Source: an uncultured Pseudomonadales bacterium
Lineage (GTDB): Bacteria; Patescibacteriota; Microgenomatia; UBA1400; RBG-16-45-19
Assembly: GCA_964441155.1 (NCBI GenBank)
Contig: CAYYKL010000001.1
Span: 88,393 to 152,392, forward strand
Length of the DNA: 64,000 nucleotides
Reading direction: 5' to 3'
Position 1 is the first letter of the stretch. The number at the start of each line of letters is the position of its first letter. Positions 12,187 through 46,128 of this stretch are shown here, piece by piece. The notes beneath the pieces are model-generated. The model was not told where the DNA came from and made no database searches. It was given only the letters and a program-made list of their open reading frames with translations. Made by a program: the position numbers and the translations under genes.

Positions 12187-12245
12187 AATTCGCTTCCAGA
12201 CCTACTATAGGCAATACAACTCTCTTTTGATAGACTTAAAGCCGT

Positions 12246-14467: not shown

Positions 14468-14811
14468 ATCCCGTTGATCCCCGCCAGCACCTTCAAGACG
14501 CGTTAGACTCTATCCAGCAAATTCAGCAGTATTTTGAAGGCAAAAAGTCTGTTGATCTTGAAGAAAATGATATGCTTTTTGATGCCATTTTGATGCGCTT
14601 GCAAGTAATCGGAGAGGCAGTCAAAAAATTACCCAAACCTATGCATGAGCAGCATCCCCAGATTCCTTGGCGAGAAATTATCGCCTTAAGAAATTATATT
14701 TCTCATGCATATAGCTTTTTAGATGCAAGCAGGTTTTACACCATAATTGTCGACGATTTACCTAAGTTGCAAAAAGTTTTGCGCGAATTATTTTCCAAAT
14801 CTGATCAATAG
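14464..14811 (+). CDS. hepT: HepT (DUF86/HEPN) toxin
   Basis: 115 aa. LRNYISHAY matches the HEPN R-x4-H-x-Y motif. There is a 4-bp overlap with the upstream mntA. Confidence 0.75.
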
Positions 14812-19028: not shown

Positions 19029-20041
19029 CTTTGATCTCTAATGGGTTGCGATACCTAACAAATAGCTGCAGACAATGGCAGCGAGTGAGTATTAGGAATC
19101 GTCAGCGTGATGATATGGCTAAAATCTATGATGGAATGGTTGAGCGGGTTCCCGCCAAAACCATAAAAAAACACATTCATTCAAAAATGGCTCCTGAAAT
19201 TGAAAGAATTATTGACTTCGTAGATCGATATCGAACTTTAGAACCACCTTCGATTCCTCAACGAAACTACACCTCTATATCAGTGGTTATTCCTCATTAT
19301 CACCACTATGAATACTTAGATCTTGCTTTGACTTACCTAGAACGTCAGACAGATAAAGCAGAAGAGGTGCTCATAGTCGATGATATTTCTCCTGATCAGT
19401 CTAGACTGCTCTCTGTGATTAAAGCTCACCAAAAAAAATTACCACTTCGTCTCCTTAAGCCAAAGTTAAAATTGTATCCGGCGAAAGCCAGACAGTATGG
19501 CGCTGAAAACGCCAAAAGTGATGTATTGCTTATGCATGATGCTGACGATATCTCGCATAAAAATCGGATAGCATTAACCAGGTCTTTCTTTCAATCTAAT
19601 AAAAACGCTATGCAGCTAAATATTGGCTATGTGGAATTTTATAAGAAAGCTTTTTTTGATTATTTGGGGGATTTTTCAAATCTGATTTTGGATGATTACG
19701 TAGTGACCACGTCTGAAATTATCCAAGCAATGCGGGCGAAATTTATTAACCAACAACTTTCCATCCCCGATGCTTTCCGAGTACATTTTGGCGGATATGG
19801 CGCTAAGGGTAAATTTGGTTTCTTACCTCAATCCGGGCATGTTGCGTATCGAAAAGAAGTGGTTTCCCAAGTGGCTTGGACCTCCACACCAACCAACTAT
19901 ATTTTTACCCATTTTGAAGACTTTGAGTTTAATTTTTTATTATTGCTTGCTTTTCAAGCATCCTATCAATTGGATATACCCTTGATCTATTATCGTCGAT
20001 TCACGTCTACCAATGTTGTGAGTAATTATCGAGTTATTTGA
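19025..20041 (+). CDS. Glycosyltransferase family 2
   Basis: ISVVIPHYHHYEYLDLALTYLERQT...LIVDDISPD...LMHDADD, which is GT-A with DxD. 4-bp overlap with the upstream gene. Confidence 0.6.
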   Translation: MTLISNGLRYLTNSCRQWQRVSIRNRQRDDMAKIYDGMVERVPAKTIKKHIHSKMAPEIERIIDFVDRYRTLEPPSIPQRNYTSISVVIPHYHHYEYLDLALTYLERQTDKAEEVLIVDDISPDQSRLLSVIKAHQKKLPLRLLKPKLKLYPAKARQYGAENAKSDVLLMHDADDISHKNRIALTRSFFQSNKNAMQLNIGYVEFYKKAFFDYLGDFSNLILDDYVVTTSEIIQAMRAKFINQQLSIPDAFRVHFGGYGAKGKFGFLPQSGHVAYRKEVVSQVAWTSTPTNYIFTHFEDFEFNFLLLLAFQASYQLDIPLIYYRRFTSTNVVSNYRVI

Positions 20042-20052
20042 TAGAATGAAGT

Positions 20053-20829
20053 ATGAAAAATAAAATATTAAACCCGCTGAGGCGGGCTATTCTTATCGCG
20101 GTTCACCAAAGTCGAGAAGGTCACATTCCAAGTGCATTGTCGATTTTAGACATCGTATGGGTATTGTATGACGGTATCCTACGGATTAACTCAACATCAG
20201 TATCTGACCCAAATCGTGATTTCTTTATATTGAGTAAGGGCCAAGCTTCGCTGGCGCTGTACACCGTGTTGGCAGAGAAAGGATTTATTACTCACGAGGA
20301 TGTTCAGCACTATTGCAATATTGATGGCATTTTAGGAGGACATCCGGATCGTACAAAAGTGCCTGGAGTTGAAGTGTCTACCGGATCTCTAGGCCATGGC
20401 TTTCCTATGGCAGTGGGCATTGCCCTGGGAAACCGACTAGCAAAACGCACTAATCGCACATTCGCATTAATTGGGGACGGAGAAGCAAATGAAGGCACAG
20501 TTTGGGAGGCAGCTCTCTTGGGTGCCCATCACAAACTTTCAAATTTAACATTGATTATTGATCATAACCACTCGACAGATCGGGCTTTAATGGTAGATGA
20601 TCTGGCTCAAAAATTTAATAGTTTCGGCTGGTGTGTTTTGGAAACCAATGGACATGACCACGCCCAGCTTGAAACTGCATTAACAACTACAGATCCCATT
20701 AAACCTATGGCTATTGTTGCCCACACAATAAAAGGCCACGGCATTCCTGAAATGGAAAATAATTGGTCCTGGCATCATAAAGCACCGACCGATGATGAGT
20801 TATCCGTTTTCTTGAAGGAATTGAAATGA
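20053..20829 (+). CDS. Transketolase, N-terminal (TPP-binding) subunit
   Basis: HIPSALS...GHPDR...GSLGHGFPMAVGIALG...ALIGDGEANEGTVWEAAL...IIDHN, the classic split-transketolase N half. Confidence 0.85.
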   Translation: MKNKILNPLRRAILIAVHQSREGHIPSALSILDIVWVLYDGILRINSTSVSDPNRDFFILSKGQASLALYTVLAEKGFITHEDVQHYCNIDGILGGHPDRTKVPGVEVSTGSLGHGFPMAVGIALGNRLAKRTNRTFALIGDGEANEGTVWEAALLGAHHKLSNLTLIIDHNHSTDRALMVDDLAQKFNSFGWCVLETNGHDHAQLETALTTTDPIKPMAIVAHTIKGHGIPEMENNWSWHHKAPTDDELSVFLKELK

Positions 20830-21707
20830 GAAAACAATTCGCAAGCACTGTCGGCGAATTGATGGGTCAGAATGAACGAGTGGTAACCTTGTTGGGTGAT
20901 ATTGGAGTGTGGGGTTTTAACCAAGTGTTTACAGACTATCCGGAGCGCATATACAACGTTGGTATACTCGAGCAAGCCACTATTAGCATGGCGGCTGGGC
21001 TGGCATTAACTGGGTTTATTCCGGTAGTTCATACCATTGCCCCTTTCTTGGTTGAGCGTGCTTTGGAACAACTAAAAGATGATTTTGGCTATCAGCACTT
21101 GGGTGGCAACTTTGTGAGCGTGGGAGCTTCGTATGATTACGCTAGCCTAGGCTGCACTCATCATTGTCCGGCGGATGTAGGCATCTTGAGTCGGATTCCG
21201 GGCATGGAGATTATTGTGCCGGGTACGGCAGTAGAATTTGATCAATTGTTTCGTTTTTACTATGACGACGGCAATCCAACCTATTTCCGATTAAGCGAAC
21301 GTAGTAATACCGAAAGTAATTTTACAGAACCTGGCAAGGCTGTGGCGATTCAATCAGGAAAGCAAGCCACTATTGTGTGCGTGGGACCAACTCTCGATCG
21401 AGTGATGGAAGCTGCGACGAACAAAGATGTTGGTGTTATATACTACTCAGTGGTCAAACCATTTGATGCAGAAACCTTACGAGAAACAACATATTCAGAT
21501 AAAGTACTGTTGGTTGAACCCTATTATGAGGGCGTATTAACCAGTGAGGTGACTCGAGCATTTTATCCGAAAGCAATTAAACTTGACTACATGGGAGTGC
21601 CACACACCTTTTTGCATAATTATGGCAATGCTGAGCAGCATGACGCGCAAATTAACTTAACTGCCGATGCGATAGCCAATCGCCTAGAAAGGTTGATTCA
21701 TGCATAA
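20826..21707 (+). CDS. Transketolase, C-terminal (pyrimidine-binding) subunit
   Basis: 293 aa with GYQHLGGNFVSVGASYDY and a transketolase C-terminal half. 4-bp overlap with the N-terminal subunit. Confidence 0.8.
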   Translation: MRKQFASTVGELMGQNERVVTLLGDIGVWGFNQVFTDYPERIYNVGILEQATISMAAGLALTGFIPVVHTIAPFLVERALEQLKDDFGYQHLGGNFVSVGASYDYASLGCTHHCPADVGILSRIPGMEIIVPGTAVEFDQLFRFYYDDGNPTYFRLSERSNTESNFTEPGKAVAIQSGKQATIVCVGPTLDRVMEAATNKDVGVIYYSVVKPFDAETLRETTYSDKVLLVEPYYEGVLTSEVTRAFYPKAIKLDYMGVPHTFLHNYGNAEQHDAQINLTADAIANRLERLIHA

Positions 21708-22716
21708 GCTGAGTCAGTTTTTGTTAGACGATGCGCGCAGCATTGGGGAACGGGTAGACTGGACCCCGCTGGATGGCAAGTCATTGATGATAACGGGTGC
21801 TTCAGGCTTGATCGGACACTACTTACTTGCTTCTCTGACTCATGCTCGAGAAAGCCATGATTTTACTGTGATTGCAGTGTTTCATAGTGAACCGGAGCCA
21901 TATTTGCAAAACATTTTGTCAAAGATCAGCGCCACTGTGTATGTAGGGGATTTGACCGATGAAACTTTATTTTCACAATTACCCCAGTCTGACATGATTA
22001 TTCATGCCGCAGGCTATGGACAACCGGGCCGATTTTTGGAAAATAAATCCAAAACGCTCAAGTTAAATACGTTTGCAACTTTTAAATTGCTTGATTTGCT
22101 TAATCCAAGGGGGCGATTTTTGTTTGTGAGCAGTAGTGAAATTTACAGTGGCTCTCCAAATTCTCCCTACAAAGAAGCAAATATTGGCACTACCACACCA
22201 CTACATCCTCGAGCCTGCTACATTGAGGGAAAACGCGCGGGTGAAACTATAAGCCTTAATTATAGTCGTGAACATGTATCTACGGTGGTTACCCGACTAT
22301 CATTAGCGTATGGACCCGGTACAAAACGACATGATCAGCGCGTTTTGAACAACTTCATTGAAAAAGGCTTAGGTGGCAAGATTGAACTTATGGATGCAGG
22401 CGTAGCTTTACGAACGTATGTGTATGTCACTGATGCGGTTGAAATGTTGTGGAAGATGTTATTGTCTGGCAAAGAACTTGTATATAACTTGGGCGGACAT
22501 TCGCGCTCATCAATTGCTGACCTAGCAAAACTAATTGGAGACTTGATGCAGGTTCCTGTGCTTGTGCCAAAAGTCAGCCAAACAGTATCCGGTGCGCCCG
22601 ACGACGTGTCGCTTGATATGACTCTGGCAGAAAACGAGTTTGGTAAACCTGATTATGTAACGATAGAAGAAGGTTTGAAACGCACCATTGCTTGGCAAAG
22701 GATGATCTATTCATGA
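21700..22716 (+). CDS. NAD-dependent epimerase/dehydratase (extended SDR)
   Basis: LMITGASGLIGHYL glycine-rich motif, SSSEIY, and YIEGKR (YxxxK). Substrate unknown, and it is not a canonical Gmd. Confidence 0.65.
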   Translation: MHKLSQFLLDDARSIGERVDWTPLDGKSLMITGASGLIGHYLLASLTHARESHDFTVIAVFHSEPEPYLQNILSKISATVYVGDLTDETLFSQLPQSDMIIHAAGYGQPGRFLENKSKTLKLNTFATFKLLDLLNPRGRFLFVSSSEIYSGSPNSPYKEANIGTTTPLHPRACYIEGKRAGETISLNYSREHVSTVVTRLSLAYGPGTKRHDQRVLNNFIEKGLGGKIELMDAGVALRTYVYVTDAVEMLWKMLLSGKELVYNLGGHSRSSIADLAKLIGDLMQVPVLVPKVSQTVSGAPDDVSLDMTLAENEFGKPDYVTIEEGLKRTIAWQRMIYS

Positions 22717-23477
22717 AAGCTCTTCTTTTTGATATCCGATATCACTTGATTCGGTGGTGGAACCGACAAATACGCCGTCAGGCGATTCAGGATGATTTTG
22801 ACTGGAGCGAGTATCATATCCATTATTTGGGCGAGCTTGAAGATACCAAAAACAAAGTGACTCATCGATTGAAAAAAGGAGACTATATTTTTGTCAATGG
22901 CAGTTTAAAAAAGAAAAAGAAAGTCTTACCGCTCCATCCCAATCATAGACTGCTCTACGAAACGTTATTGCAGCTCAAGTCAGAAAGTATTTTGGAAGTT
23001 GGCAGTGGTGGCGGTGATCATTTATGGAATATGAGCCTGTTATCGCCCAAGCTTAAATTGTATGGTGTGGATTTATTAAAAACACAATTGGAGTTGCAAA
23101 AACGACGTTCTCCTACGCTGAAAGCCATGATCAAGCAAAGAGACATCACGTTACCATATTCGAAAGAAATACCTTCCGTTGATTGCGTATATTCTCAAGC
23201 AGTGATTATGCATATTCATGCTGGCAATGGTCACTTGGTAGCGTTGAGTAATATGTTTCAGGCTGCAATGAATCAAGTTGTGCTTATGGAAAATTGGGGC
23301 AAGCATCAGTTTATGTCAGACATTCTGATGTTACATAAACATGGCATGATTCCTTGGAATACAGTGTACTTTTATTTCCGCCGTTCACCAGAGCTAGGAA
23401 ACGTGCCACATTTAATGGTAGTGTCTCGTGTTAAGCTTGATTACGAACCGCTTACTGATTACCAACTGCTGGCTTGA
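22713..23477 (+). CDS. Class I SAM-dependent methyltransferase
   Basis: ILEVGSGGGDHL (motif I) and LYGVDL. The track ORF starts at a TTG at 22692. The ATG at 22713 gives a 4-bp overlap with the upstream stop. Confidence 0.5.
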   Translation: MKALLFDIRYHLIRWWNRQIRRQAIQDDFDWSEYHIHYLGELEDTKNKVTHRLKKGDYIFVNGSLKKKKKVLPLHPNHRLLYETLLQLKSESILEVGSGGGDHLWNMSLLSPKLKLYGVDLLKTQLELQKRRSPTLKAMIKQRDITLPYSKEIPSVDCVYSQAVIMHIHAGNGHLVALSNMFQAAMNQVVLMENWGKHQFMSDILMLHKHGMIPWNTVYFYFRRSPELGNVPHLMVVSRVKLDYEPLTDYQLLA

Positions 23478-23485
23478 GGAGAAGA

Positions 23486-24253
23486 ATGAAATTGATGGGA
23501 TTTGATGTTCCACTCAAACCTTTTTTGCCGCCTATCTTACACGATCGGTTGGTAGGTAGTTATTCACAAATAAAAGGCAGTGAACTACAAAAAAAAGGTT
23601 TTAATGCCGAGAAGAAAGAGCCTTTCATTCACTCTCGCTTTAACTCATTTAGTGGACCTCAACACGAAGATTTATTAGTTGATTATCTGCTTGGCTTTCC
23701 GAAAAAGGGCTTTTACGTAGATGTAGGCGCCAATGATCCAGATTTTTTAGGCCACACACAAAGGTTTTATAATAAGGGCTGGAGAGGAATTAACATTGAA
23801 CCCCAAAAAAAATTATGGCACAAACTAAATAAAAAAAGAGCTGAAGACATCAATCTATGCTTAGCAGTTGCTAATGAGTCAGGGACCAAAACTTTCTACT
23901 CCTTACCTCACAGAAACGACGGCTCATCACTAAACTTGACTATGGCTGAGCTTAATAGCAGCTGGCACCACGCAGAAATTCAACCAATAGAGGTATCTGT
24001 CCAGCCATTAAGTGCACTTTTCACTAAATATTTAAAAACTAGTACCATTGATTTCATGTCTGTTGATGTAGAAGGATATGAATTATCGGTGCTGGAAAGT
24101 AATGATTGGGATCGATTCCGCCCTACACTACTCATAGTAGAAATTGCACATTTCAATAACAACAAAATTATTTCTTACCTTAAAAAGCAAGGTTACACAC
24201 TTTTGTATAATAATTATGTTAATGGTATTTTTATGGATCAGGCTTGTATTTGA
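23486..24253 (+). CDS. FkbM-family methyltransferase
   Basis: GFYVDVGANDPDFLGHTQRFYNKGWRGINIEPQ matches the Methyltransf_21/FkbM motif. The track start at 23474 is TTG. Confidence 0.7.
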   Translation: MKLMGFDVPLKPFLPPILHDRLVGSYSQIKGSELQKKGFNAEKKEPFIHSRFNSFSGPQHEDLLVDYLLGFPKKGFYVDVGANDPDFLGHTQRFYNKGWRGINIEPQKKLWHKLNKKRAEDINLCLAVANESGTKTFYSLPHRNDGSSLNLTMAELNSSWHHAEIQPIEVSVQPLSALFTKYLKTSTIDFMSVDVEGYELSVLESNDWDRFRPTLLIVEIAHFNNNKIISYLKKQGYTLLYNNYVNGIFMDQACI

Positions 24254-24264: not shown

Positions 24265-25191
24265 ATGCATAAATCAATTACGCTGGTTACCGGATCAAAG
24301 GGATTACTGGGCAACGCATTGCGGTCGCTAAAGCCTCACAACACCATTTTCCTAGATAGAGAAGATGTAGACCTCAGAGATTTTAATGCTACTAAAACTT
24401 TATTTCACTACCTGAAGCCAGATCGTATTATCCATTTGGCGGCAGTTGTGGGAGGCTTGGGCAGCAACATGATCCATTCCGGAGAGTATTTTCGCAGCAA
24501 CATCGCTATCAATACAAATGTGCTTGAGTCTGCAAGATTGGCTGGTACGAAAAAATTGATATCGTATATGTCCACATGTGTGTTTCCGGAAAATGCGGCA
24601 TACCCTCTTAATGAGAAGGACTTGCATAACGGAGCTCCTCATCCATCTAATTTTGGCTATGCCTACGCAAAACGAATGCTAGAAGTCCAAAGCAGTGCCT
24701 ATCGGCGAGAATGGCAGTGCGATTACATTATTGCCATTCCGACCAATATGTATGGACCGCATGATTATTGGAGTTTGGAGAATGGCCATGTCGTGCCCTC
24801 TTTAATTCATAAGTGTTACTTAGCTAAGAAAAATAAGACTTCTCTGACTATTTGGGGGAGTGGCAAACCACTTCGTGAATTTGTATTTGCACGCGATATT
24901 GCTCAACTCAGTCTATGGGCGTTAGATGAATACGAAGAAGCGGCACCCATCATTTTATCGTCTGGAGAAGAAATTAGCATTAGAGATTTGGTAGACCTAA
25001 TCGTGCAACTAATGAAGTTTAAAGGAAAAGTTCATTTTGATTTGGATAAACCAGATGGACAGATCAGAAAGCCATCAGATGTTGGCAAGCTGAAGCAGCA
25101 TTTACCACATTTCAAATTCACCCCAATCGAGGTTGGTTTACAAGAGACAATCGAGTGGTTTGAGAGTCATTACCCAGACGTAAGATTGTAA
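24265..25191 (+). CDS. GDP-L-fucose synthase-like SDR (second Fcl paralog)
   Basis: ITLVTGSKGLLG...CVFPE...FGYAYAKRMLEV...NMYGPHDYWSLENGHVVPSLI...IWGSGKPLREFVFARD...DKPDGQIRK. The track start at 24244 is TTG. The ATG at 24265 has AAGGAA 7 nt upstream. Confidence 0.75.
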   Translation: MHKSITLVTGSKGLLGNALRSLKPHNTIFLDREDVDLRDFNATKTLFHYLKPDRIIHLAAVVGGLGSNMIHSGEYFRSNIAINTNVLESARLAGTKKLISYMSTCVFPENAAYPLNEKDLHNGAPHPSNFGYAYAKRMLEVQSSAYRREWQCDYIIAIPTNMYGPHDYWSLENGHVVPSLIHKCYLAKKNKTSLTIWGSGKPLREFVFARDIAQLSLWALDEYEEAAPIILSSGEEISIRDLVDLIVQLMKFKGKVHFDLDKPDGQIRKPSDVGKLKQHLPHFKFTPIEVGLQETIEWFESHYPDVRL

Positions 25192-25193
25192 TT

Positions 25194-26123
25194 ATGGCCA
25201 AGCAAATTCGATTAGTAGCTACAGATTTTGAGAGAGCATTTGGGAGCCCACTTTCTCGTAGAGTCAAGCAGAGGTTGGAACAAAAGCGCATAGTGTTGGA
25301 GCCATTGTCAATTACAGAGAGAGACCACGTCATTCAACAAATAATCAATACTTTGCTAGATCCCAGCATCATACCGGCTGGCAAACATCGCCGATCTCAA
25401 TGGGAAACGGGCTGGAGAGAAAATCTGATCCTGTATCAAGAAACTAATAGCTTGACTACTATACTACCTCGTTATTTTGGCAAGTATCCTTATGTAAGAT
25501 TTGAAGGTGAGTTTTTTCGAACAGCACATGATAATACAGAATATCTCATGCTTGAAGTGTTGTTGGATTGGTTGTTTGACAAATACCTAGCGAATAAACC
25601 AGTTGTGTATGAATTCGGTTGTGGAACTGGTCATAACTTATTACGATTGAGAGAAATCAATTTAGATGCGGAGCTATGGGGACTAGATTGGGCTGAGTCC
25701 TCTCAGAAAATACTGTCAGAATATGTTTCCAAAGGCATGATCACTAAACTTAATGCCAATAAATTTGATTATTTTGAACCAGATTATAACTTCAACCTAG
25801 CACCTGAATCAGCTCTGTTTACCGTGGCTTCCTTAGAACAAATTGGGAATCAGTATGTCCCGTTTGTTGATTACGTGTTACAGAAAAAGCCTTCCTTGTG
25901 CTTACATATTGAGCCAATGGCAGAACTCCTTGATTCCAATCGACTGCCAGATTTTCTGTCAATTGCATACTTTAGCAAGCGCAATTATTTGTCTGGATAC
26001 GTTGAGTATTTAAAAAAACTTGAGAGTGAGGACAAGCTAGAGATTCTTCTAGCTCAACGATCTAACATTGGCAGTATGTTTGTTGATGGATACTCAATTG
26101 TTGTTTGGCGCCCACTTCAATAA
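25194..26123 (+). CDS. Class I SAM-dependent methyltransferase
   Basis: VVYEFGCGTGHNLLRL (motif I) and LWGLDWAE. Confidence 0.55.
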   Translation: MAKQIRLVATDFERAFGSPLSRRVKQRLEQKRIVLEPLSITERDHVIQQIINTLLDPSIIPAGKHRRSQWETGWRENLILYQETNSLTTILPRYFGKYPYVRFEGEFFRTAHDNTEYLMLEVLLDWLFDKYLANKPVVYEFGCGTGHNLLRLREINLDAELWGLDWAESSQKILSEYVSKGMITKLNANKFDYFEPDYNFNLAPESALFTVASLEQIGNQYVPFVDYVLQKKPSLCLHIEPMAELLDSNRLPDFLSIAYFSKRNYLSGYVEYLKKLESEDKLEILLAQRSNIGSMFVDGYSIVVWRPLQ

Positions 26124-26133
26124 AAGGCTATTT

Positions 26134-26982
26134 ATGTCTCACTCGCCATTTGTTTCCCTTGTAATTGTGACATTTGGTAGGTCAGATTATTTGGAACAAC
26201 TAATTGGTTCTATTCGTGAAACCTCACCTTCACATGAGCGCGAAGTAATAGTGGTTTCTTCAGACCCCAGAGAAAGCAAGAAAGCGAAATGGCTGAGGCA
26301 ACAAAAAGACCTTGTTACGTTATTTGTTGATGAGCGGCTACCTGGCCAGACACGTAAAAAAAGCTTATATTACTATACCAATTACGGTCTTAAAGCGGCT
26401 AAGGGAGAGTGGTTATTCGTCCTAAACGACGACATGAAAATGTCGAAGAATTGGTTTAGAGAGCTAAAATCCACAGTCAGCCAACATTCAAATGTGGGCA
26501 TGATAATTACCGCTAGCCATATTGGCGCAACTAACCTGGGACCTCGAATTCCAATAATAGGAAAGGTGCGCCAAAAAAATGACTCTTGGCGAAATATTTA
26601 TTTAGCTGATGTAGCAGTTATCCGCTCTAATGTGCTGGAATCAGTGGGTTATTTTGATGAACATATGGATTGGTATGGCAGCGGAGTTGATAATTCTTTA
26701 AAAATCGAATTACTCTCTGAATACCAGGTTATAACCAATTCAAAAATTGTGATCGACCACTTCATTGCCAGTGAATTAAGAGAGGTTAATAGAGGAACAG
26801 CATTTTGGGATTTTAATTATATTCACCGAAAATGGCAAAAGTGGGGTAAAAAGAACTCCGTGGAAATTCAAGTTACTTTGGGAACAAAACCCTATAGCAT
26901 CCTTTCGGTATCAAGCCAGGTTGCTCAAGATTTAAACCATTTGGTTTTTCGCTGGATTAAGCAATGGCTTAGTCGCCTATGA
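26134..26982 (+). CDS. Glycosyltransferase family 2
   Basis: VSLVIVTFGRSDYLEQLIGSI...VIVVSSDP...VLNDDMKM. The ATG at 26134 follows the upstream stop at 26123. Confidence 0.65.
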   Translation: MSHSPFVSLVIVTFGRSDYLEQLIGSIRETSPSHEREVIVVSSDPRESKKAKWLRQQKDLVTLFVDERLPGQTRKKSLYYYTNYGLKAAKGEWLFVLNDDMKMSKNWFRELKSTVSQHSNVGMIITASHIGATNLGPRIPIIGKVRQKNDSWRNIYLADVAVIRSNVLESVGYFDEHMDWYGSGVDNSLKIELLSEYQVITNSKIVIDHFIASELREVNRGTAFWDFNYIHRKWQKWGKKNSVEIQVTLGTKPYSILSVSSQVAQDLNHLVFRWIKQWLSRL

Positions 26983-28019
26983 AAAAAAGAGTTTCCTTTC
27001 TAGTTAAAGACGAATGTTTTCTTAATAACAGATTTTTTGCTCGAAATGATTCGCTTATGCGCGATGGACTGAATGATAGGTATATTGCATTCTATGACTT
27101 ATTAACAAAATTTGACATTGAGATCGGGACTCAAGATTTAGTAGACCCCAGGAGCGCAGATCTGGTAATCATGCATGATTTTAGTCCAAAACTTTGGAAT
27201 TTGATTCCCAACAAAAAAAATATTAAGAAGTACCTTTTGGCATATGAGCCACAGGTGGTCAACAACGATAATTGGAAAACAAGCACGTTAGCGCTTTTTG
27301 ATAGGGTTTTTACCTGGAATTTAAAGCTCATCAACAATAAACATGTAATTTGGCTTCCCCTGAGCATGCGTCTCGAATTTGCTGAAGCTAATTGGGAACA
27401 GTTTAGACAAAGGATTTTTTGCGGTTCTGTATATAGTTTTAAACCAAGCTCAAAAAAGAATTCTCTCTATAATAATCGACTTTTTGATACTCTATCTCTT
27501 TCTAGATTAAATCCAGGTCAAGTGCATTTATATGGCCAGGGTTGGAGCCGTATTGCCGAAAATAACCTCAACATAATCGGAAAGTTATCATTGTTATTCC
27601 AGTTAAGAGGATTTCTACCATCAGAAATAATGTCTATTTATCGCGGCACTATAGAGAAGAAAAACCCAACGCTGAGACAATATAAATTTAGTTTATGTTA
27701 TGAAAATATGAGCGGTGTTTCTGGATTTGTGACAGAAAAACTTTTTGACGTAATGAAGGCAGGATCTATCCCAATATATCTAGGCGCACAAGATATAACT
27801 GACCTCGTACCCGAAAGCTGTTATATTGACAGACGAAAATTCAGATCAATCGGCAATCTAAATTCCCATCTTCACTCATTTAATTCAGAAGATTACAACT
27901 ACATGCTGATGGCTCAGGAAAAATTTGTAAAAAGTCATTTTGGAAATATCTTTCAAGCTTCAACTTGGGCAAAGACTTTAGGGGAATGGTTATTGCGTGA
28001 TTTGGATCTCGAGCAGTAG
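26979..28019 (+). CDS. Alpha-1,3-fucosyltransferase (GT10)
   Basis: YKFSLCYENMSGVSGFVTEKLFDVMKAGSIPIYLG is near-identical in pattern to the H. pylori FutA/FutB motif YKFNLCFEN..GYGYVTEKI.DAYFSHTIPIYWG. Confidence 0.75.
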   Translation: MKKRVSFLVKDECFLNNRFFARNDSLMRDGLNDRYIAFYDLLTKFDIEIGTQDLVDPRSADLVIMHDFSPKLWNLIPNKKNIKKYLLAYEPQVVNNDNWKTSTLALFDRVFTWNLKLINNKHVIWLPLSMRLEFAEANWEQFRQRIFCGSVYSFKPSSKKNSLYNNRLFDTLSLSRLNPGQVHLYGQGWSRIAENNLNIIGKLSLLFQLRGFLPSEIMSIYRGTIEKKNPTLRQYKFSLCYENMSGVSGFVTEKLFDVMKAGSIPIYLGAQDITDLVPESCYIDRRKFRSIGNLNSHLHSFNSEDYNYMLMAQEKFVKSHFGNIFQASTWAKTLGEWLLRDLDLEQ

Positions 28020-28021
28020 TC

Positions 28022-28837
28022 TCAATTTTTGGCACGATTTTGTTTCTTTGCGACAACATGAATTCCATAGCTAAGAATTTCTTCTGTGTTTTGAGAGTGC
28101 GTTGAAAATTGATGCAAAGTTCTGAGAACAATCAGTCTAGCAATCGCAAAAAGCCAATTAGTCTTGTAAGCTGATTTGCTGTGTCGATGTTGAAAAATTT
28201 CCATCCTTCTTAATTCTTGTGCCAGATATTCAAAGTAATTCCCGTTAAATGTTAGCTCTAAGATGTTAAATCCATTTTTCTCGAGAACGTATTGATACCA
28301 ATATTTGCTCAGTCCTGTTTGAAAAAAATATGGCGCATAGTGGGTCAGAGAACAAATTGGTGCAGTGATTATTAGCTTTCCATCGGGTTTTAATATTCGA
28401 GAAAATTCTTGGATCGCTTTAACTGGCTCTGGTACGTGTTCAAGAACTTCTATGCACATGATTGCATCAAAAGTGCCTGCACCAACTGGAATGGCTGTAA
28501 TATCAGAGACAATATCTAGTTTTGAATTATCCCAACTACTGGTTTGCATCCCTTCATGATTCCCCTTGCCATCATATTGACCAAAGTCTTGGCTGGTGTA
28601 ACGCAAATGGCTACAGTAGGGTTTGTATTTCAGCTCTCCTGCGCCGGCGTCTAATATAGTCAATCCTTTGGGTAATTTTTTCAGCGTTTTTTCTAGCCAA
28701 GCTTCTCTAAAGCGTGTGTTGGTCGTGCCAATTGGACTGGTAATTTTTTCGAAGATTTTTGCTTTTATTCCACTAATAACGTTCATATAAATTTTCATTA
28801 TATTCAGATTTAACAACAACACTTTATAATGTAGCAT
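28022..28837 (-). CDS. Class I SAM-dependent methyltransferase
   Basis: LTILDAGAGELKY (motif I) and CIEVLEHVPEP (Methyltransf_11/23-like). Confidence 0.6.
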   Translation of the reverse strand: MLHYKVLLLNLNIMKIYMNVISGIKAKIFEKITSPIGTTNTRFREAWLEKTLKKLPKGLTILDAGAGELKYKPYCSHLRYTSQDFGQYDGKGNHEGMQTSSWDNSKLDIVSDITAIPVGAGTFDAIMCIEVLEHVPEPVKAIQEFSRILKPDGKLIITAPICSLTHYAPYFFQTGLSKYWYQYVLEKNGFNILELTFNGNYFEYLAQELRRMEIFQHRHSKSAYKTNWLFAIARLIVLRTLHQFSTHSQNTEEILSYGIHVVAKKQNRAKN

Positions 28838-28863
28838 ACTGATTCTGTTACTAAAGGTTGAAC

Positions 28864-29760
28864 ATGATTATTGTTGGATTGGCTGGTGGACTGGGAAACC
28901 AGATGTTTCAGTTCGCTTTAGGATATCGATTGGCATTAGACCGAGCAGTGCCCTTGGCATTTGATGTATCGGGTTTGCACAACCCAACAATAGTGGCCAG
29001 AAATTTTAGCTTGGGTGTATTTGGAATAAAAAAAACTATTGCTCCAGAAAATGTTATTCAAAGATATCGTTATGGGTCTTTATTTCCAAACCGGCCGTAT
29101 ATTCACTCCTTAATAGATTCGGTTTTTCCATTGAAAAGAAAATCCTATAAACAAGAATCTGGACTTGGCTTTGATAGCTCAGTATTCGGTCTGGGAAAGA
29201 ATGTCTATCTCCAGGGTTATTGGCAAAGTGAGCAATATTTCCTAGACCGAGAATCATACATTAGAAAAGCATTGAGTTTTACCCCTACGCTTCAAGAAAA
29301 TATTCGCGATTGGGAAGCCAAAATATCCAATTCTCATTCTGTTGCTGTGCATGTGAGAAGAGGGGATTACGTTACCGATCCTAAAGCGAATGCAATTAAT
29401 GGTGTGTTAGAGACGAAATATTACATGAGAGCAAGTGAGTTTTTGGAAAAAACAATTAAACACCGAACCAGAAATTCCTCCAATCAACTTGAGTATTTTG
29501 TTTTTTCGGATGATCTACATTGGGCTCAGAAAAACATTACTTTTAAAGGCAAAACTCATTTTGTCGAAACCAAGATTGATTATGAGGATATGAGGTTGAT
29601 GAGCCTGTGTCGGCATCAAATAATCGCCAACAGCACGTTTAGCTGGTGGAGTGCATGGCTTAATAAAAATGGTGATAAGATCGTTGTAGCTCCAAAAAAT
29701 TGGTTTATGGCGCCACTTTCGAATCCTGACTTAATCCCAAACAGCTGGATGCAATTGTAA
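28864..29760 (+). CDS. Alpha-1,2-fucosyltransferase (GT11)
   Basis: N-terminal IIVGLAGGLGNQMFQFALGYRLA, then VAVHVRRGDY, then IIANSTFSWWSAWL. All three GT11 motifs are collinear with H. pylori FutC / E. coli WbsJ. The track start at 28858 is TTG. Confidence 0.85.
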   Translation: MIIVGLAGGLGNQMFQFALGYRLALDRAVPLAFDVSGLHNPTIVARNFSLGVFGIKKTIAPENVIQRYRYGSLFPNRPYIHSLIDSVFPLKRKSYKQESGLGFDSSVFGLGKNVYLQGYWQSEQYFLDRESYIRKALSFTPTLQENIRDWEAKISNSHSVAVHVRRGDYVTDPKANAINGVLETKYYMRASEFLEKTIKHRTRNSSNQLEYFVFSDDLHWAQKNITFKGKTHFVETKIDYEDMRLMSLCRHQIIANSTFSWWSAWLNKNGDKIVVAPKNWFMAPLSNPDLIPNSWMQL

Positions 29761-29761
29761 T

Positions 29762-30739
29762 ATGCACTTATCATTCTTGCCCTGCCTCGTGGATCCAATT
29801 TCTCATAGTCCACTGCAAATTAAAGTGACAAAAAGAAGAGGATCGTTTATAGACGAAGGCTCATTGATAGGTAGAAAATCCATATACCCAATAGTTCATG
29901 GAATTCCCCGTTTTAGTGGATATCAGGATGACAAGAAGTATGCTGATAGTTTTTCTTATCAATGGAACCGATGGGGATTAATCCAGTTTGAGCGATTCAA
30001 TAAGGGCTATCCTATGGAAGGTCATACTCGCACAATTTGGGAACGGGTAACCGGAGTTACCGGGTCTTTAACAGGCAAAACGGTCGTTGATTGGGGTTGT
30101 GGAACGGGAAGATTTATTGAGATTGCTCGGGAGAAAAAAGCTAAAGTAATTGGAATTGATCTAAGTTACTCGGTAGAAATTGCTCAGCAACAATTTGCTG
30201 ATGATCCTAATGTGCTAATCATTCAGGGAGATATCTTAAATTCACCCATTGCACATTCTACAGCAGACTTGGGGTATTCTATTGGGGTGTTGCACCATAC
30301 GCCAAATCCTAAACAGGGTTTTCACGAATTGGTAAAAATGATTAAACCAAAAGGTCGTGTGGCAGTTTCCGTGTATGGGACTTCAGGACATTATGTTAAC
30401 CCTGTGGTAAACATGTATCGTCAAGTTTTCAAGTATTTGTGGCCCGTTTTGAAACATTATCCGCCTCTAATATATTCGTACTCAGTTGTGTATGGGATTA
30501 ACCCCATAAAGAAGTTGCCAATCCTTAGAAATTTGATGTGGCCGCTTTTTTCTATGTTCCCATCTATTGATTTACCAGATCCTCGATGGTCAGTGCTGGA
30601 CACGTTTGATAGTGTTACTCCAACATATCAAAAAGGATTATCTTTATATGAAGTTTTTGATTGGTTTAAGTCAAACAAATTATCAGAGATTGAGCCAGCT
30701 GATTGGAAAGGTACGTGCCTGAGGGCGTATAAAAAATAA
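29762..30739 (+). CDS. Class I SAM-dependent methyltransferase
   Basis: VVDWGCGTGRFIEIA...VIGIDLS (motifs I and II). Confidence 0.6.
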   Translation: MHLSFLPCLVDPISHSPLQIKVTKRRGSFIDEGSLIGRKSIYPIVHGIPRFSGYQDDKKYADSFSYQWNRWGLIQFERFNKGYPMEGHTRTIWERVTGVTGSLTGKTVVDWGCGTGRFIEIAREKKAKVIGIDLSYSVEIAQQQFADDPNVLIIQGDILNSPIAHSTADLGYSIGVLHHTPNPKQGFHELVKMIKPKGRVAVSVYGTSGHYVNPVVNMYRQVFKYLWPVLKHYPPLIYSYSVVYGINPIKKLPILRNLMWPLFSMFPSIDLPDPRWSVLDTFDSVTPTYQKGLSLYEVFDWFKSNKLSEIEPADWKGTCLRAYKK

Positions 30740-30742: not shown

Positions 30743-32557
30743 ATGTGCGGTATTACTGGTTTAATAGCACCTAAAAATCAGCAGAATTCTGTTCGCTTGG
30801 ATCGGATGGTGCAAAGTTTGAAGCATCGTGGGCCTGATGCTCATGCATCTTACTGGTTTTCTGAAGCCGGCCTGGGTCACACACGGCTGGCAGTGGTTGA
30901 CTTAAGCCCAACCGGATCTCAGCCAATGCTGAGTCGAAATAAACAATTGGGCATAACTTTTAATGGGGAAATCTATGGGTATCAGCACCTAAAAAAGTCA
31001 TTTTCAGATTATCCATTTATATCGACATCTGATACTGAAGTAATTCTGGCGCTCTATGAGAAGTATGCAGAAAACATGCTGACGCGTTTACCGGGTCAAT
31101 TTGCTTTTGCGCTCTGGGACGATAAGGGCAAAACCTTGTTCGCCGCACGTGATCGAATGGGAGAAAAACCTTTTTACTATGCTTTTGGCCCTCATGGAGA
31201 ATTTCTCTTTGCTTCAGAAATGAAAGCCCTGTTGGCCAGTAATCTCATTAAACCTGAAATTGATCAAGATTCACTGAGTTATTATTTACAACATTTATAT
31301 GTTCATCCTCACAAAACAATATATAAAAATATCTACACCCTCCCACCCGCTCATGAACTTATCTATAAAGCAGGTAAAGTAAAAGTGAAGCGCTATTGGC
31401 ATTTGCCCAAACTTAACCATGCTATTGGGCTTGATGAAGCTATCGCAAGATTTCAACAGCTATTGACAACTGCTGTTCAAAAGCAATTGGTTGCTGATGT
31501 TCCTGTGGGAGCTTTTTTAAGTGGTGGCATCGATTCGAGCTCAATCGTTGCTCTGGCGTCTCAGCTTCACCCCAACCTAACTACATTCTCGTTTGGATTT
31601 GAAGGCAAAAGAAGTGAACTGCCATATGCGCGGCTCGCGGCCAAACGCTATAAAACAAACCACATTGAACTTACAGAAAAAGAAAATATCGCAGAGTTAT
31701 TGTTAAAAATGCAAGAAGTCTACGATGAACCCTTTGCGGATTCATCTAATATTCCCACCTACCTTATATCGAAACTGGCCCGCGAGCATACAACCGTTGC
31801 CTTAACCGGAGACGGCGGGGATGAAATATGTGGCGGCTATGCTCATTGGTATCGGCCGTTATATTGGATGCTAAACGAGAAACCCTATTTTGGAAAATCC
31901 TTTTTACTTTCCTTAGCGACTCATTTCATGCAAAAGTTTAATCAGCCTCAGGCCAGAGAGCTCCTCTATCGTCAAGCAGGATTAACGTTACAAAACGACA
32001 CCGATTCCATAATTCAAGCTCATGATAAACAAAATCACTATTTTAGTAACTCAGAAATTAAACACTTAGGTTTAAAACCATATTCCATGAACCAGATTGC
32101 TTATTCCAATACTATGGAATCAGTTTTCGCCATGGACGTGGAAGACTACCTGCCAGGAGATGTTTTAGTGAAAACGGATCGAGCTTCCATGGCACATGGT
32201 TTAGAGCTGAGGGCACCTTTTCTAGATGTGGACTTAATTGAATTTTGCCTTTCCTTGCCCTTCACTCTTAAGCTAACACGCTCTGAAGATAAACATCTCC
32301 TAAGAAAAGCGTTGGACCAACAACTACCTAAAGAAATCATAAAACGACCCAAACAAGGTTTTGGCGCACCCATAGTTACTTGGCTGCAAAGAACTGATGT
32401 TCAAGAACTTATCGCAGAAAATCTTCACAAAAATAACAGAAAGGTTTTCTCACTTTTGCCATTTGATACGGTTCAGGAATTAAGTTCACAACCTACCTAC
32501 AAAACTTGGGTTCTACTAACCCTATCTTTATGGCTTGAAAATCGAGACTATTTGTAA
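30743..32557 (+). CDS. Asparagine synthase (glutamine-hydrolysing) family amidotransferase
   Basis: N-terminal MCGITG (Ntn Cys2), PP-loop SGGIDSS, 604 aa. In a glycan locus this is probably a WbpS-like sugar amidotransferase rather than AsnB proper. Confidence 0.8.
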   Translation: MCGITGLIAPKNQQNSVRLDRMVQSLKHRGPDAHASYWFSEAGLGHTRLAVVDLSPTGSQPMLSRNKQLGITFNGEIYGYQHLKKSFSDYPFISTSDTEVILALYEKYAENMLTRLPGQFAFALWDDKGKTLFAARDRMGEKPFYYAFGPHGEFLFASEMKALLASNLIKPEIDQDSLSYYLQHLYVHPHKTIYKNIYTLPPAHELIYKAGKVKVKRYWHLPKLNHAIGLDEAIARFQQLLTTAVQKQLVADVPVGAFLSGGIDSSSIVALASQLHPNLTTFSFGFEGKRSELPYARLAAKRYKTNHIELTEKENIAELLLKMQEVYDEPFADSSNIPTYLISKLAREHTTVALTGDGGDEICGGYAHWYRPLYWMLNEKPYFGKSFLLSLATHFMQKFNQPQARELLYRQAGLTLQNDTDSIIQAHDKQNHYFSNSEIKHLGLKPYSMNQIAYSNTMESVFAMDVEDYLPGDVLVKTDRASMAHGLELRAPFLDVDLIEFCLSLPFTLKLTRSEDKHLLRKALDQQLPKEIIKRPKQGFGAPIVTWLQRTDVQELIAENLHKNNRKVFSLLPFDTVQELSSQPTYKTWVLLTLSLWLENRDYL

Positions 32558-32566: not shown

Positions 32567-33568
32567 ATGAGTGTTCCTCTTGTTTCAGTGGTAATGGCTG
32601 TACATAACGGCGAAGCGTTTATTTCAGAATCAATCGACAGTATTCTTAACCAAACGTGGACAAACTTTGAATTACTCATTATTGACGACGCATCGACCGA
32701 TAAAACGACGACATTAATCAAAGATTTTAGCGATCATCGCATTAAACTTTTTAAGCTGCCTAAAAAAAATGGATTATCAAAAGCTTTGAACATAGGCTTG
32801 CAACACGCTCAAGGGAACTACATTGCTCGAATGGATGCCGACGATAGTAGCCATCCTCAGAGATTAACTGAGCAAATTGCTTTCATGGAAAAGAATAGCG
32901 ACGTTGTTCTTTGCGGGAGCTTTATCAAGAGCATAGGAAATTCGCATCAAACCACAACATACCCCGTCGACTCAGAACTTTTAAAAACCAGTCTTTTATT
33001 TGGCTCACCCTTTGCCCATCCGAGTGTCATGATTCGCGCGGATGTTCTCAAAAAAAATAAACTTGAATACAATGAAGCATTGTCCACAGCCCAAGACTAT
33101 GAGTTATGGACTCGCTTAAGCCTCTTTGGTAATTTTGCCAATATACCTAAAGTATTGTTGCACTACAGGAAACACAGCAAACAAACAAGTAAAACCAAGA
33201 GGGCGCTGCAATTACAAACTGCTTACGCGCTGTCTCTCAAAGTTCTGAGCTCAATAAATGTGTCTCCCCGACCAGACCAGGCTTCTGTTCACCAAGCATT
33301 AGTAGCTCATCGTTATGACAATGCCACTGAGCGAAACGTCGTTTTTTGGCTTAACACAATTTTTACTGCTAATGAAAAAACAACTGTGTTTAATCGCCGT
33401 GCCATAAAAAAAACATTGACCAACTTATGGCTAGAAGTAGCTCTACAACAAAGAGTCTCTTTGGTGCAGGTTTTTAAATCGCTACTGAAAGAACCTTTTA
33501 TCCTTTTTGACAAAACTCTATATTGTAGAGTTTCTATATTGTGCGGCAAAAAGGCTTTCAGAATATGA
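32567..33568 (+). CDS. Glycosyltransferase family 2
   Basis: VSVVMAVHNGEAFISESIDSILNQTWTNFELLIIDDASTD...RMDADD. Confidence 0.75.
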   Translation: MSVPLVSVVMAVHNGEAFISESIDSILNQTWTNFELLIIDDASTDKTTTLIKDFSDHRIKLFKLPKKNGLSKALNIGLQHAQGNYIARMDADDSSHPQRLTEQIAFMEKNSDVVLCGSFIKSIGNSHQTTTYPVDSELLKTSLLFGSPFAHPSVMIRADVLKKNKLEYNEALSTAQDYELWTRLSLFGNFANIPKVLLHYRKHSKQTSKTKRALQLQTAYALSLKVLSSINVSPRPDQASVHQALVAHRYDNATERNVVFWLNTIFTANEKTTVFNRRAIKKTLTNLWLEVALQQRVSLVQVFKSLLKEPFILFDKTLYCRVSILCGKKAFRI

Positions 33569-34740
33569 ACATTGTTTTTATAGGGACTATTGATACCAGA
33601 GGCGGCGCTGCAAAGATATCCTGGAGTTTAAAGAGGGAACTAACCGAAAAAGGTCACCAAGTAAGTATGTTTGTGGGAAATAAATACTCTCAAGATCCTT
33701 GCGTCTATCAGATTCCCTGGTATCGAGGCCAATTCTTTCTAGAGCGTTTTTTTGCCAATGATCTAGCTTTCCCTAAAACTGATTATTTAGTTAATCATCC
33801 AATTATTCAGTCTGCTGACATAATACATTGCCACAATTTGCACAGTAGTTTTTTTAACTTAGGCACATTGCCAAAATTAGCTCAAATTAAACCCCTTGTT
33901 TGGACTCAACACGACTTATGGTCGATCACGGGAGGCTGTACCGATAGCCACACTTGCTCTCTTAACAAGCCATCCAGAATTGCATATCACTTTGGAGACA
34001 CGAGAGCGCATTTACTTAAAACGAAGCAGCAACTGTACCAACAAGCCTCGTTTACTGTTGTTGCTAATTCTCAATGGATGTTAAACCAGCTTAGCGGCAG
34101 CATCTTGGGAGACAAACCTCTTCACTTAGTGCGAAATGGTATTGATACGAGATTGTTTAAACCAATCGATAAAAAAAGTGTGCGCAAGAAGCTAGGCATT
34201 CCTCCAGATGCTTTTGTAGTCTTGTTTGCCGCAAAAGGTGGCTTACGCAATAAACTAAAAGGCTCAGATTATTTTGTTTCGTTGCTTCAAAATTATAAAA
34301 ATAAAGATATATACGGCATTTGTGTGGGCTCGGAAAAAACATTGACCGAAGAAAAGTCGATTCCTTGGCTAAAAATCGTGCCCTTCCTAACAGAGTCTTC
34401 TAAAATGGCTGAGCATTATTGCGCTGCCGATGTTTTTGTTTATCCAACTTTAGCTGATTCATTTGGTCTTGTCGCAGCAGAAGCGATGGCCTGTGGAACA
34501 CCTGTCCTTACTTTTAATACAGATGCTCTACCCGAACTGGTTGAGCACAAAGTTAATGGATATGTTGCGAAGTACCAAGATGCAGATGATTTGTTAAACG
34601 GTTTGAAGTGGATTCAAAAACTGACTCTATCGGCAAAAAAATCAATCGCAAAAAAATCGAGGACCAAAATAGTTGATGATTTTTCACTGGAAACCATGAC
34701 CAGCAACTATCTCCAACTTTATGAAAAACTGTTAAGTTAG
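33565..34740 (+). CDS. Glycosyltransferase family 4
   Basis: ADVFVYPTLADSFGLVAAEAMACGTPVLTF. The track start at 33541 is GTG. The ATG at 33565 makes a 4-bp overlap with the upstream stop. Confidence 0.75.
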   Translation: MNIVFIGTIDTRGGAAKISWSLKRELTEKGHQVSMFVGNKYSQDPCVYQIPWYRGQFFLERFFANDLAFPKTDYLVNHPIIQSADIIHCHNLHSSFFNLGTLPKLAQIKPLVWTQHDLWSITGGCTDSHTCSLNKPSRIAYHFGDTRAHLLKTKQQLYQQASFTVVANSQWMLNQLSGSILGDKPLHLVRNGIDTRLFKPIDKKSVRKKLGIPPDAFVVLFAAKGGLRNKLKGSDYFVSLLQNYKNKDIYGICVGSEKTLTEEKSIPWLKIVPFLTESSKMAEHYCAADVFVYPTLADSFGLVAAEAMACGTPVLTFNTDALPELVEHKVNGYVAKYQDADDLLNGLKWIQKLTLSAKKSIAKKSRTKIVDDFSLETMTSNYLQLYEKLLS

Positions 34741-46125: not shown

Positions 46126-46128
46126 GAC

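Follow-up and report, generated by a model that had tools for sequence, protein, structure and literature searches.

A GT10- and GT11-family fucosyltransferase-like pair in a predicted ABC-transporter-dependent fucose-type glycan operon with an interleaved split-transketolase cassette

The 64,000-nucleotide stretch of contig CAYYKL010000001.1 (assembly GCA_964441155.1) analysed here, hereafter the window, carries a large surface-glycan locus that includes two genes of the fucosyltransferase families GT10 and GT11. The reading that we favour, with a probability of roughly 0.6, is that these two belong to an ATP-binding cassette (ABC) transporter-dependent operon for a fucose-type glycan, and that interleaved with its genes is a sugar-modifying cassette with a split transketolase. 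A first-pass annotation made from the sequence alone had flagged positions 24265 to 30739 as a ‘Lewis-antigen type’ double fucosylation module, and every open reading frame (ORF) that it named was recovered in the ORF map. The genes of the operon, in their order on the DNA, are as follows.

14823..15758, +, Fcl1, a bacterial-type GDP-L-fucose synthase homologue; NF047922 298.8 bits; 8du0, 7ll6 and 1e6u at 204–222 bits
15598..16569, +, Wzm, ABC-2 permease; PF01061 E=1e-17 and a Wzm/RfbD-like NF050109 match; its actual start probably lies after 15758
16572..17819, +, Wzt, ATPase that has a carbohydrate-binding domain at its C-terminus; ABC_tran E=6e-23; Wzt_C (PF14524) E=7e-17, 62 bits against a cut-off of 30
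17829..20041, +, a GT4 followed by a GT2 glycosyltransferase, from Pfam; syntenic orthologues in locus L095 with 47% and 42% identity
20053..20829 and 20826..21707, +, TktN and TktC, a split transketolase-like thiamine diphosphate (ThDP) enzyme; Transketolase_N E=1e-38, Transket_pyr E=4e-21
21700..22716, +, extended short-chain dehydrogenase/reductase (SDR), UXS-like, partner of the split transketolase; UXS1 115 bits; SSE and YxxxK motifs
22692..23477, +, class I methyltransferase; Methyltransf_11 E=3e-6
23474..24253, +, FkbM-type methyltransferase; Methyltransf_21 E=7e-29
24265..25191, +, Fcl2, an FX-type GDP-L-fucose synthase homologue within the cassette; human FX (4e5y) 319 bits, E=2e-94; NF047922 226.6 bits
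25194..26123, +, S-adenosylmethionine (SAM)-methyltransferase-like protein; EFGCGTG motif; below the Pfam cut-offs when scanned alone
26068..26982, +, GT2 glycosyltransferase coupled to the GT10 gene; PF00535 E=8e-9
26979..28019, +, GT10-family (alpha1,3/4-fucosyltransferase family) enzyme, 346 aa; PF00852 E=7e-15, 55.5 bits against a gathering cut-off of 23.9
28022..28837, −, class I methyltransferase; Methyltransf_11 E=4e-13
28864..29760, +, GT11-family (alpha1,2-fucosyltransferase family) enzyme; PF01531 E=1e-35, 123.9 bits against 23.9
29762..30739, +, class I methyltransferase; Methyltransf_11 E=8e-17
30743..32557, +, AsnB-type glutamine amidotransferase; Asn_synthase E=6e-94; TIGR01536 466 bits
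32567..33568, +, GT2 glycosyltransferase, from Pfam
33541..34740, +, GT4 glycosyltransferase, from Pfam

All but one of these genes are on the plus strand, packed tightly or overlapping, and they make up a single co-directional surface-glycan operon of ~20 kb (~14.8–34.7 kb), the distal half of which is the flagged region. An ABC-2 permease (PF01061) together with an ATPase (PF00005) bearing Wzt_C (PF14524) is the composition of a Wzm/Wzt exporter with a carbohydrate-binding domain, and in ABC-dependent systems it is that domain of Wzt which recognises a modified, often methylated, chain terminus (PMC9445017). The likeness to E. coli O9a WbdD/Wzt and to Aquifex aeolicus WzmWzt (PMC9445017) consists of Wzm plus Wzt_C, and the window methyltransferases could make a methylated cap. 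However, the polymer here is predicted to be a fucose-type heteropolymer and not polymannose or rhamnose; no WbdD-type kinase-methyltransferase with coiled coil was recognised in the locus, and of the five methyltransferase-type genes in the operon none is assignable as chain terminator.

That 26979..28019 encodes a GT10 enzyme with a motif like that of the H. pylori enzyme was the starting proposal, and it stands. In addition to the Pfam match, residues 224–314 align in phmmer to residues 221–310 of the H. pylori alpha1,3-fucosyltransferase HpFucT (2nzw, 5zoi), and in the alignment the signature YKFsLCyEN..G.VTEK..D....IPIYxG is kept. The GDP-fucose-binding residues N240, Y246, E249 and K250 of HpFucT are matched by N243, F250 (a Tyr-to-Phe change), E253 and K254. 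Alignments of 14 and of 21 homologues have E90, R167, N243, E253 and K254 invariant in the subfamily. HpFucT is inactivated by mutating Glu95 or Glu249 (PMC4202792). E90 is in an invariant ‘EP’ motif of the N-terminal domain, the pattern of which resembles E(S/P)P...F..(W)T of FUTs, and it may be the equivalent of the HpFucT catalytic base Glu95. When the protein was modelled with AlphaFold2 from the 21-sequence alignment (mean predicted local distance difference test score 91.5, predicted template-modelling score 0.90), ranks 1–8 in Foldseek were taken by HpFucT (2nzx and 2nzw; E 8e-12 to 6e-10, template-modelling (TM) score 0.56–0.61) and human FUT9 (TM 0.51–0.60), mango FUT13 and Arabidopsis FUT11 being the next matches. 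Sequence similarity to HpFucT is restricted to the C-terminal donor-binding domain, and the acceptor domain of the model resembles that of HpFucT at the level of fold only (TM ~0.6, 16% identity). The protein ends at residue 346, without the heptad (DDLRxNY) repeats and C-terminal amphipathic helices of FutA/B, and there is no tandem repeat in the gene. At its 5′ end the gene overlaps that of the GT2 at 26068..26982 by 4 bp, i.e., translational coupling. A 45% identical orthologue of this GT2 is directly upstream of GT10 in L095 and, as the two are fused to one 812-aa protein directly after the cassette in the Veillonellales contig JBDKTO010000091.1 (L097, positions 9912–12350), the fusion argues that GT2 and GT10 act consecutively.

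The GT11 assignment, made initially on the presence of all three family motifs, is borne out by the PF01531 score and by a translation in which GGLGNQMFQ is visible together with motifs I–III, namely HVRRGDY, YFVFSDD and ANSTFSWWSAWL; the ORF extends from a TTG at 28858. No solved GT11 structure was detectable by sequence search. Because Hh0072, also a GT11 enzyme, makes an alpha1,3 linkage (PMC4202792), the linkage made here is not to be assumed from the family. With E. coli WbsJ (O128), WbiQ (O127) and WbwK (O86) and with H. hepaticus Hh0072 the gene product shares a GT11 domain, HxRRGD, FSDD and STFSWW motifs, and a polysaccharide locus as setting. In contrast, the E. coli O-antigen enzymes belong with Wzx/Wzy-dependent O-units and adjacent gmd-fcl, and the window system is ABC-transporter dependent and has no local gmd.

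How far does the analogy with H. pylori FutA/FutB plus FutC go? It is fair for the enzyme families: the CAZy families are the same, as are the GDP-fucose-binding motif and the GT-B fold (2NZW/2NZX being the best matches of the model), and the locus has GDP-fucose-synthase homologues. Membership of the H. pylori Lewis system fails, however, on the C-terminus, on the acceptor domain, which is unrelated by sequence in a protein of ~16% overall identity, and on the diversity of the families, which fix neither linkage nor acceptor. The arrangement of the genes also differs, those of the window being clustered in a Wzm/Wzt operon with methyltransferases and the split-transketolase cassette. The designation ‘Lewis-antigen type’ is not supported.

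When each GTDB species, represented by one genome, was scanned for the motif, at least 560 stretches encoding this GT10 subfamily were confirmed, and contexts were taken from 80 loci. The nearest homologues found are 32–34% identical, and the subfamily is present in Campylobacterota, Bdellovibrionota, Elusimicrobiota, Chlamydiota, Nitrospirota, Omnitrophota, several Patescibacteria and a Micrarchaeota metagenome-assembled genome. Gmd (GDP-mannose 4,6-dehydratase, at ≥300 bits) is within 10 kb of GT10 in 26 of the 80 loci, and Gmd or a strong Fcl in 29. Since gmd-fcl adjoin GT10, contiguously in L075 and at a distance of 1 kb in L066, a GDP-fucose-type donor is supported for the subfamily. GT10 and GT11 are within 6 kb of each other, and often directly adjacent, in at least 11 of the 80 loci, usually with a GT2 of the 32567..33568 type as well (36–42% identity beside GT10-GT11 in L010, L015, L029, L034, L045, L048, L059 and L073). 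The named carriers of the pair are Halothiobacillus, Sulfurimonas indica, Bdellovibrio, Nitrospinota, Sideroxyarcus, Mariprofundus, Ca. Phlomobacter, Psychromonas and Riflebacteria. The set is a recurrent, horizontally shared module of environmental bacteria. As it recurs, with or without the GT2, in free-living chemolithotrophs and in marine and predatory bacteria, it is no signature of animal-host mimicry, and the host mimicry suggested at first pass is not supported; nothing indicates N-acetyllactosamine (LacNAc) acceptors, Lewis epitopes or an animal host. As a Lewis-mimicry claim the locus matters little, the evidence pointing to an ordinary environmental polysaccharide operon. What does matter is that uncultured bacteria very commonly carry this divergent GT10 subfamily (more than 560 matches among the GTDB species genomes), which is often paired with GT11 and one particular GT2 and is a ready source of new fucosyltransferase specificities.

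The two GDP-L-fucose-synthase-like genes first recognised from the sequence alone are upheld by PDB matches and complete sets of catalytic residues. Fcl1 and Fcl2 retain S/T-x-C (TIC or STC), YxxxK and the catalytic His (SHV or GHV), and the best solved relatives of both are all GDP-L-fucose synthases. Orthologues of Fcl1 with 63–65% identity adjoin Gmd in L066 and L075. Human FX, at 319 bits, is a better match of Fcl2 than E. coli Fcl, at 165 bits, and it could be wondered whether Fcl2 was acquired from a eukaryote, a notion rejected as Fcl2 falls within a very large clade of bacterial proteins 306 aa in length (64–73% identity), with members labelled GDP-L-fucose synthase in Patescibacteria, Omnitrophica, Desulfobacterales, Veillonellales and Methylomonas.

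Is there, then, a Gmd to provide the substrate of Fcl? The initial impression that no canonical Gmd is present was correct for the window and for 10 kb on either side of it. An E. coli Gmd sequence, used as a probe only, gave in tblastn no more than 25% identity anywhere in the window, where the same probe, as positive control, matches 55–81% identical genes in related loci. The best window ORF for TIGR01472 (gmd), 13204..14175, has 79 bits against a cut-off of 415, and the 10-kb flanks have no candidate dehydratase, i.e., no gene of the GDP_Man_Dehyd/epimerase family. That best ORF is rejected as Gmd, being of epimerase type with an SSS motif, and so is 12246..13235, which is of UXS type with 327 bits to human UXS1. 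The sole candidate named originally was the SDR at 21700..22716. However, since its orthologues sit beside canonical Gmd in L096, L130 and L136, it more likely has a different job, as an enzyme of the cassette rather than as the missing Gmd.

The cassette itself was unexpected. TktN, TktC, SDR, Fcl2 and the methyltransferase-like protein are encoded in the same order in 8 of 8 Fcl2-type contexts, namely L092/L093, L094 (Methylomonas sp. AM2-LC, CP157005.1), L095, L096, L097, L098, L099 (Omnitrophica) and L100. Identities to the window proteins in these are 53–59% for TktN, 53–61% for TktC, 46–55% for the SDR, 64–72% for Fcl2 and 46–52% for the methyltransferase-like protein. L095, in which the Fcl is labelled ‘Patescibacteria group bacterium’, matches the window gene for gene from Wzt to GT10, and in L096 the immediate neighbours of the cassette include a canonical Gmd (60% identical to the Gmd probe) and an Fcl1-type gene. 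When metagenomes were scanned with the methyltransferase-like protein as seed, at least 504 relatives were confirmed, of which the best 80 loci were kept; co-occurrence in these was counted with relaxed identity cut-offs that were set after inspecting exceptions, strict thresholds having undercounted. TktN, TktC and SDR are immediately upstream in 27 of the 29 metagenome loci with ≥4.5 kb of upstream sequence. An Fcl2-type gene intervenes in 9 of those 27 cassette loci, with a different SDR or none in the others. Where ≥8 kb is available on both sides, 13 of 15 cassette loci have Gmd(-like) or Fcl genes, and 10 of the 15 have Gmd(-like) ones. GT10 is ≤5 kb downstream of the cassette in 11 of 34 loci (11 of 24 among closer homologues). 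Thus the co-linear TktN-TktC-SDR-(Fcl)-methyltransferase-like arrangement recurs with orthologues elsewhere. Searches of the literature for a transketolase with fcl, gmd, O-antigen clusters or GDP-4-keto-6-deoxymannose returned nothing relevant, and no description of the cassette was found; the cassette, which covers half of the flagged region, is widespread and apparently uncharacterised. Its carrier Methylomonas sp. AM2-LC is a named strain of a cultivable genus.

What might the cassette enzymes do? The best PDB match of TktC is the C-chain of the split transketolase 6yaj (83 bits), with DXS next. In the 6yaj alignment Gly100 and Leu108 are at the positions of E. coli transketolase His461 and Asp469, and His473 is kept as His112. 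His461 we take to contact the substrate phosphate and Asp469 the C2-OH of the acceptor, and since the equivalents of both are replaced, an unusual, non-canonical acceptor is suggested for TktC. The methyltransferase-like protein is from a family of 1029 cluster representatives (at 50% identity), and 17 of 30 scanned members match Methyltransf_25. Proteins of its type are fused to Transket_pyr plus Transketolase_C (P0323, P0330 and P0358) or to an E1 subunit, E1_dh (P0311). The first-pass annotation had pointed to three interleaved methyltransferases and had taken them to suggest O-methylated fucose. Two, 28022..28837 on the minus strand and 29762..30739, are clear; the third, 25194..26123, is sub-threshold in Pfam, but the EFGCGTG motif and the matches within its family speak for it. 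The O-methyl fucose deduction is not supported. Orthologues of 28022..28837 are present in 5 of the 8 Fcl2-type contexts (40–51% identity) and in L010 and L029 (44%), and as at least two of the three interleaved genes, 25194..26123 and 28022..28837, travel with the split-transketolase cassette rather than with the fucosyltransferases in particular, O-methylation of fucose need not be their function.

YerE-type ThDP enzymes branch 4-keto sugars for lipopolysaccharide, as in yersiniose, and this together with the miharamycin and amipurimycin clusters is the nearest precedent for a C2 (hydroxyacetyl or acetyl) transfer to a 4-keto sugar, the likeness being that a split transketolase is accompanied by an oxidoreductase and by sugar-nucleotide enzymes. 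For miharamycin and amipurimycin the addition of a hydroxyacetyl branch to a keto-sugar by split-gene transketolases is a proposal that was never demonstrated, and the 13 other predicted split-gene cases are all from Streptomycetes (PMC12247030). Those systems are either CDP-sugar, YerE-type decarboxylases or Streptomyces antibiotic clusters, whereas the window cassette is found in surface glycan loci of many phyla, is linked with Gmd/Fcl and GT10, and has a dedicated methyltransferase-like partner.

The mechanism that we propose for the fucose-type glycan operon takes gene identities, motifs, fold, synteny and co-occurrence as its observations, and from these donors, linkages, acceptors, cassette chemistry and cap are deduced. 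At the cytoplasmic face the GT4, GT2, GT10 and GT11 enzymes would assemble the polymer on a lipid carrier, and Wzm/Wzt would export it, the carbohydrate-binding domain of Wzt probably reading a terminal, perhaps methylated, cap. GT10 and GT11, as predicted inverting GT-B enzymes with intact GDP-sugar sites, most likely each add an alpha-linked L-fucose-type residue. Fcl1, and probably Fcl2, would convert GDP-4-keto-6-deoxymannose to GDP-L-fucose, and the Gmd that makes the former would have to be encoded elsewhere. The cassette may divert GDP-keto-sugar into a second 6-deoxyhexose, C2-branched and/or methylated: the GDP-4-keto-6-deoxyhexose from Gmd would be branched by the transketolase, the SDR would process the branched product, the methyltransferase-like protein would methylate it, and the Fcl-type enzyme would finish it or make GDP-fucose in parallel. 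Its most specific form, in which the cassette adds and methylates a two-carbon branch on the Gmd product or a similar nucleoside-diphosphate-4-keto sugar, giving an undescribed branched 6-deoxyhexose that GT10 (perhaps GT11) transfers or next to which it fucosylates, is tentative and on balance improbable. If true, it would be the first physiological split-transketolase pathway for keto-sugar branching, in surface glycans across many phyla and not in a Streptomyces antibiotic cluster. In any case a tightly conserved, apparently unstudied cassette of 4–5 genes is genetically coupled to GDP-fucose-pathway genes and GT10, and it predicts, testably, a new modified deoxy-sugar in bacterial surface glycans.

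Several points weigh against the fucose-type glycan operon as just set out. Neither the window nor the 10 kb to each side of it has a Gmd, ManB/ManC or Fkp gene, so that GDP-fucose supply in this organism is putative. Fcl1 (298.8 bits) and Fcl2 (226.6 bits) are both under the NCBIfam NF047922 equivalog cut-off of 500, and Fcl2, which just 9 of the 27 metagenome loci have within the cassette, may be a plain GDP-fucose synthase or may carry out a cassette step. In sequence, only the donor domain of the GT10 protein resembles characterised enzymes, and no characterised enzyme of its subfamily, or of the cassette, was found in the literature. The final acceptor could be lipid A-core, an S-layer protein or a wall polymer.

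A simpler product can be envisaged, a plain difucosylated, O-methylated polysaccharide for which the two Fcls are redundant, the SDR at 21700..22716 is a non-canonical Gmd, the transketolase boosts precursors and the methyltransferases O-methylate fucose. We consider it a possible, if unlikely, account. The SDR does have a Ser-x-Glu plus YxxxK site of dehydratase/decarboxylase type, it precedes Fcl2 as gmd precedes fcl, and a canonical Gmd within 8 kb is missing from most of the sampled Fcl2-type cassette loci; moreover Fcl2 is nearer to true FX, at 319 bits, than to any other solved enzyme, and the cassette of L097 has GDP-heptose-type genes beside it, as in part does that of L091, which would suit a transketolase supplying sedoheptulose-7-phosphate. 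However, L096, L130 and L136 have a canonical Gmd and an Fcl1-type gene beside the orthologue of the SDR, and 10 of the 15 cassette loci with sufficient flanks have Gmd(-like) genes; the SDR is therefore not simply a substitute for Gmd. TktC is also without the equivalents of His461 and Asp469, and the fusion of the methyltransferase-like protein to TktC or to E1 in several genomes argues for a shared pathway instead of housekeeping supply.

For the two remaining accounts the expectations are much lower. That an H. pylori-like FutA plus FutC pair here builds Lewis x/y-type epitopes on LacNAc, for mimicry of a host or partner cell, is very improbable. The same two CAZy families are involved, the GT2 conserved alongside GT10 and GT11 in many loci could lay down a beta-linked acceptor, and the closest synteny is with a contig on which the Fcl carries the label ‘Patescibacteria group’, many members of that group being episymbionts. 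Against this are the GT10 protein, with no heptad repeats or FutA-type C-terminus and with only fold-level similarity in its acceptor domain, the lack of any GT25-type galactosyltransferase match among the window ORFs scanned, and the commonness of the GT10 and GT11 pairing in free-living bacteria; also both families include other acceptors and linkages (PMC4202792, PMC11949838). Equally hard to credit is that the GT10 protein has no part in polymer building, and fucosylates a protein such as an S-layer protein or pilin, or a lipid, directly, as FUT10 and FUT11 do for EMI domains. FUT10/11 are indeed GT10 protein O-fucosyltransferases (PMC11949838), so the family does include such enzymes, and the surroundings are full of membrane transferases of GT-C, PMT_2 and YfhO type that are typical of protein or wall glycosylation. 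But the GT10 gene is translationally coupled to that of a GT2, with which it is fused in L097, and its position inside a Wzm/Wzt operon fits stepwise assembly on a lipid carrier.

The operon is enclosed by a glycan island of >85 kb that runs past both edges of the window, 10 kb beyond each of which was examined, and that is rich in GT4 and GT2 enzymes and has at least 10 GT-C-type membrane proteins. GT-C-type paralogues (PMT_2, PMT, YfhO, PTPS_related, DUF2142 and DUF6541) flank the operon at 2083–12186 and at 44386–59095. The further glycan genes in the 10-kb flanks are for Wzx, Wzy_C, GT2, GT4 and PMT_2 proteins; as Wzx flippases and a Wzy_C protein are encoded in the island, it has a Wzx/Wzy route as well as one through an ABC transporter. 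Immediately upstream of the operon are the following.

9875..10621, a 248-aa ORF; matches a nucleotide-sugar dehydrogenase model at positions ~105–281 of 413, weakly (39.6 bits against a cut-off of 190); perhaps a UDP-glucose dehydrogenase that is truncated or has degenerated
10621..12186, DUF2142/PMT_2 protein
12246..13235, +, UDP-glucuronate decarboxylase (UDP-xylose synthase, UXS) homologue; human UXS1 2b69 and 4gll 327 bits; TSE motif
13204..14175, +, GalE-family epimerase, closest to UDP-glucuronate 4-epimerases; 5u4q 265 bits, 6zl6 200 bits; SSS motif
14180..14811, +, MntA/HepT-like toxin–antitoxin pair; NF047752 E=1e-11 and NF047751 E=3e-6, both below cut-off

Given that the AsnB-type gene shares an operon with the UDP-glucuronate 4-epimerase-like gene and UXS, it is suggested that the glycan also holds xylose and amidated uronic acid, the amidotransferase at 30743..32557 probably acting in sugar-acid amidation. 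The AT-rich, Shine–Dalgarno-poor, glycosyltransferase-dense character ascribed to the DNA at first pass agrees with a GC content of ~40% in the region, with the Pfam glycosyltransferase matches, and with the counts at gene starts: a GGAG, GAGG or AGGA tetramer is ≤20 nt upstream of only 9 of 45 (random background 7.5%), and translation initiation in the window therefore seems largely Shine–Dalgarno-independent. The window was scanned for tRNA and Rfam families with no matches, and promoter and terminator scans of it did no better than on shuffles.

Some of the related cassette loci have peculiarities of their own. The 5.5-Mb genome contig of L096 has, in the 2.83 Mb region, one and a half copies of the cassette, as TktN-TktC-Fcl2 and then TktN-TktC-SDR-Fcl2-methyltransferase-like-GT10, and a mannose-6-phosphate-isomerase-type cupin is also nearby. 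Next to the cassette of L097 are genes for a SIS isomerase, a GHMP kinase and a nucleotidyltransferase, i.e., of GDP-heptose type; L091 has only the GDP-heptose-type kinase and nucleotidyltransferase, together with a second transketolase pair, two aldo-keto reductases and three further Fcl-like SDRs. Proteins with DUF268 (PF03269), a family familiar mainly from Caenorhabditis, adjoin the cassette in L094, L097 and L100. Finally, the MntA/HepT-like (type VII) pair of the window sits between the sugar-nucleotide genes and Fcl1, a position that in L066 and L075 is held by gmd.

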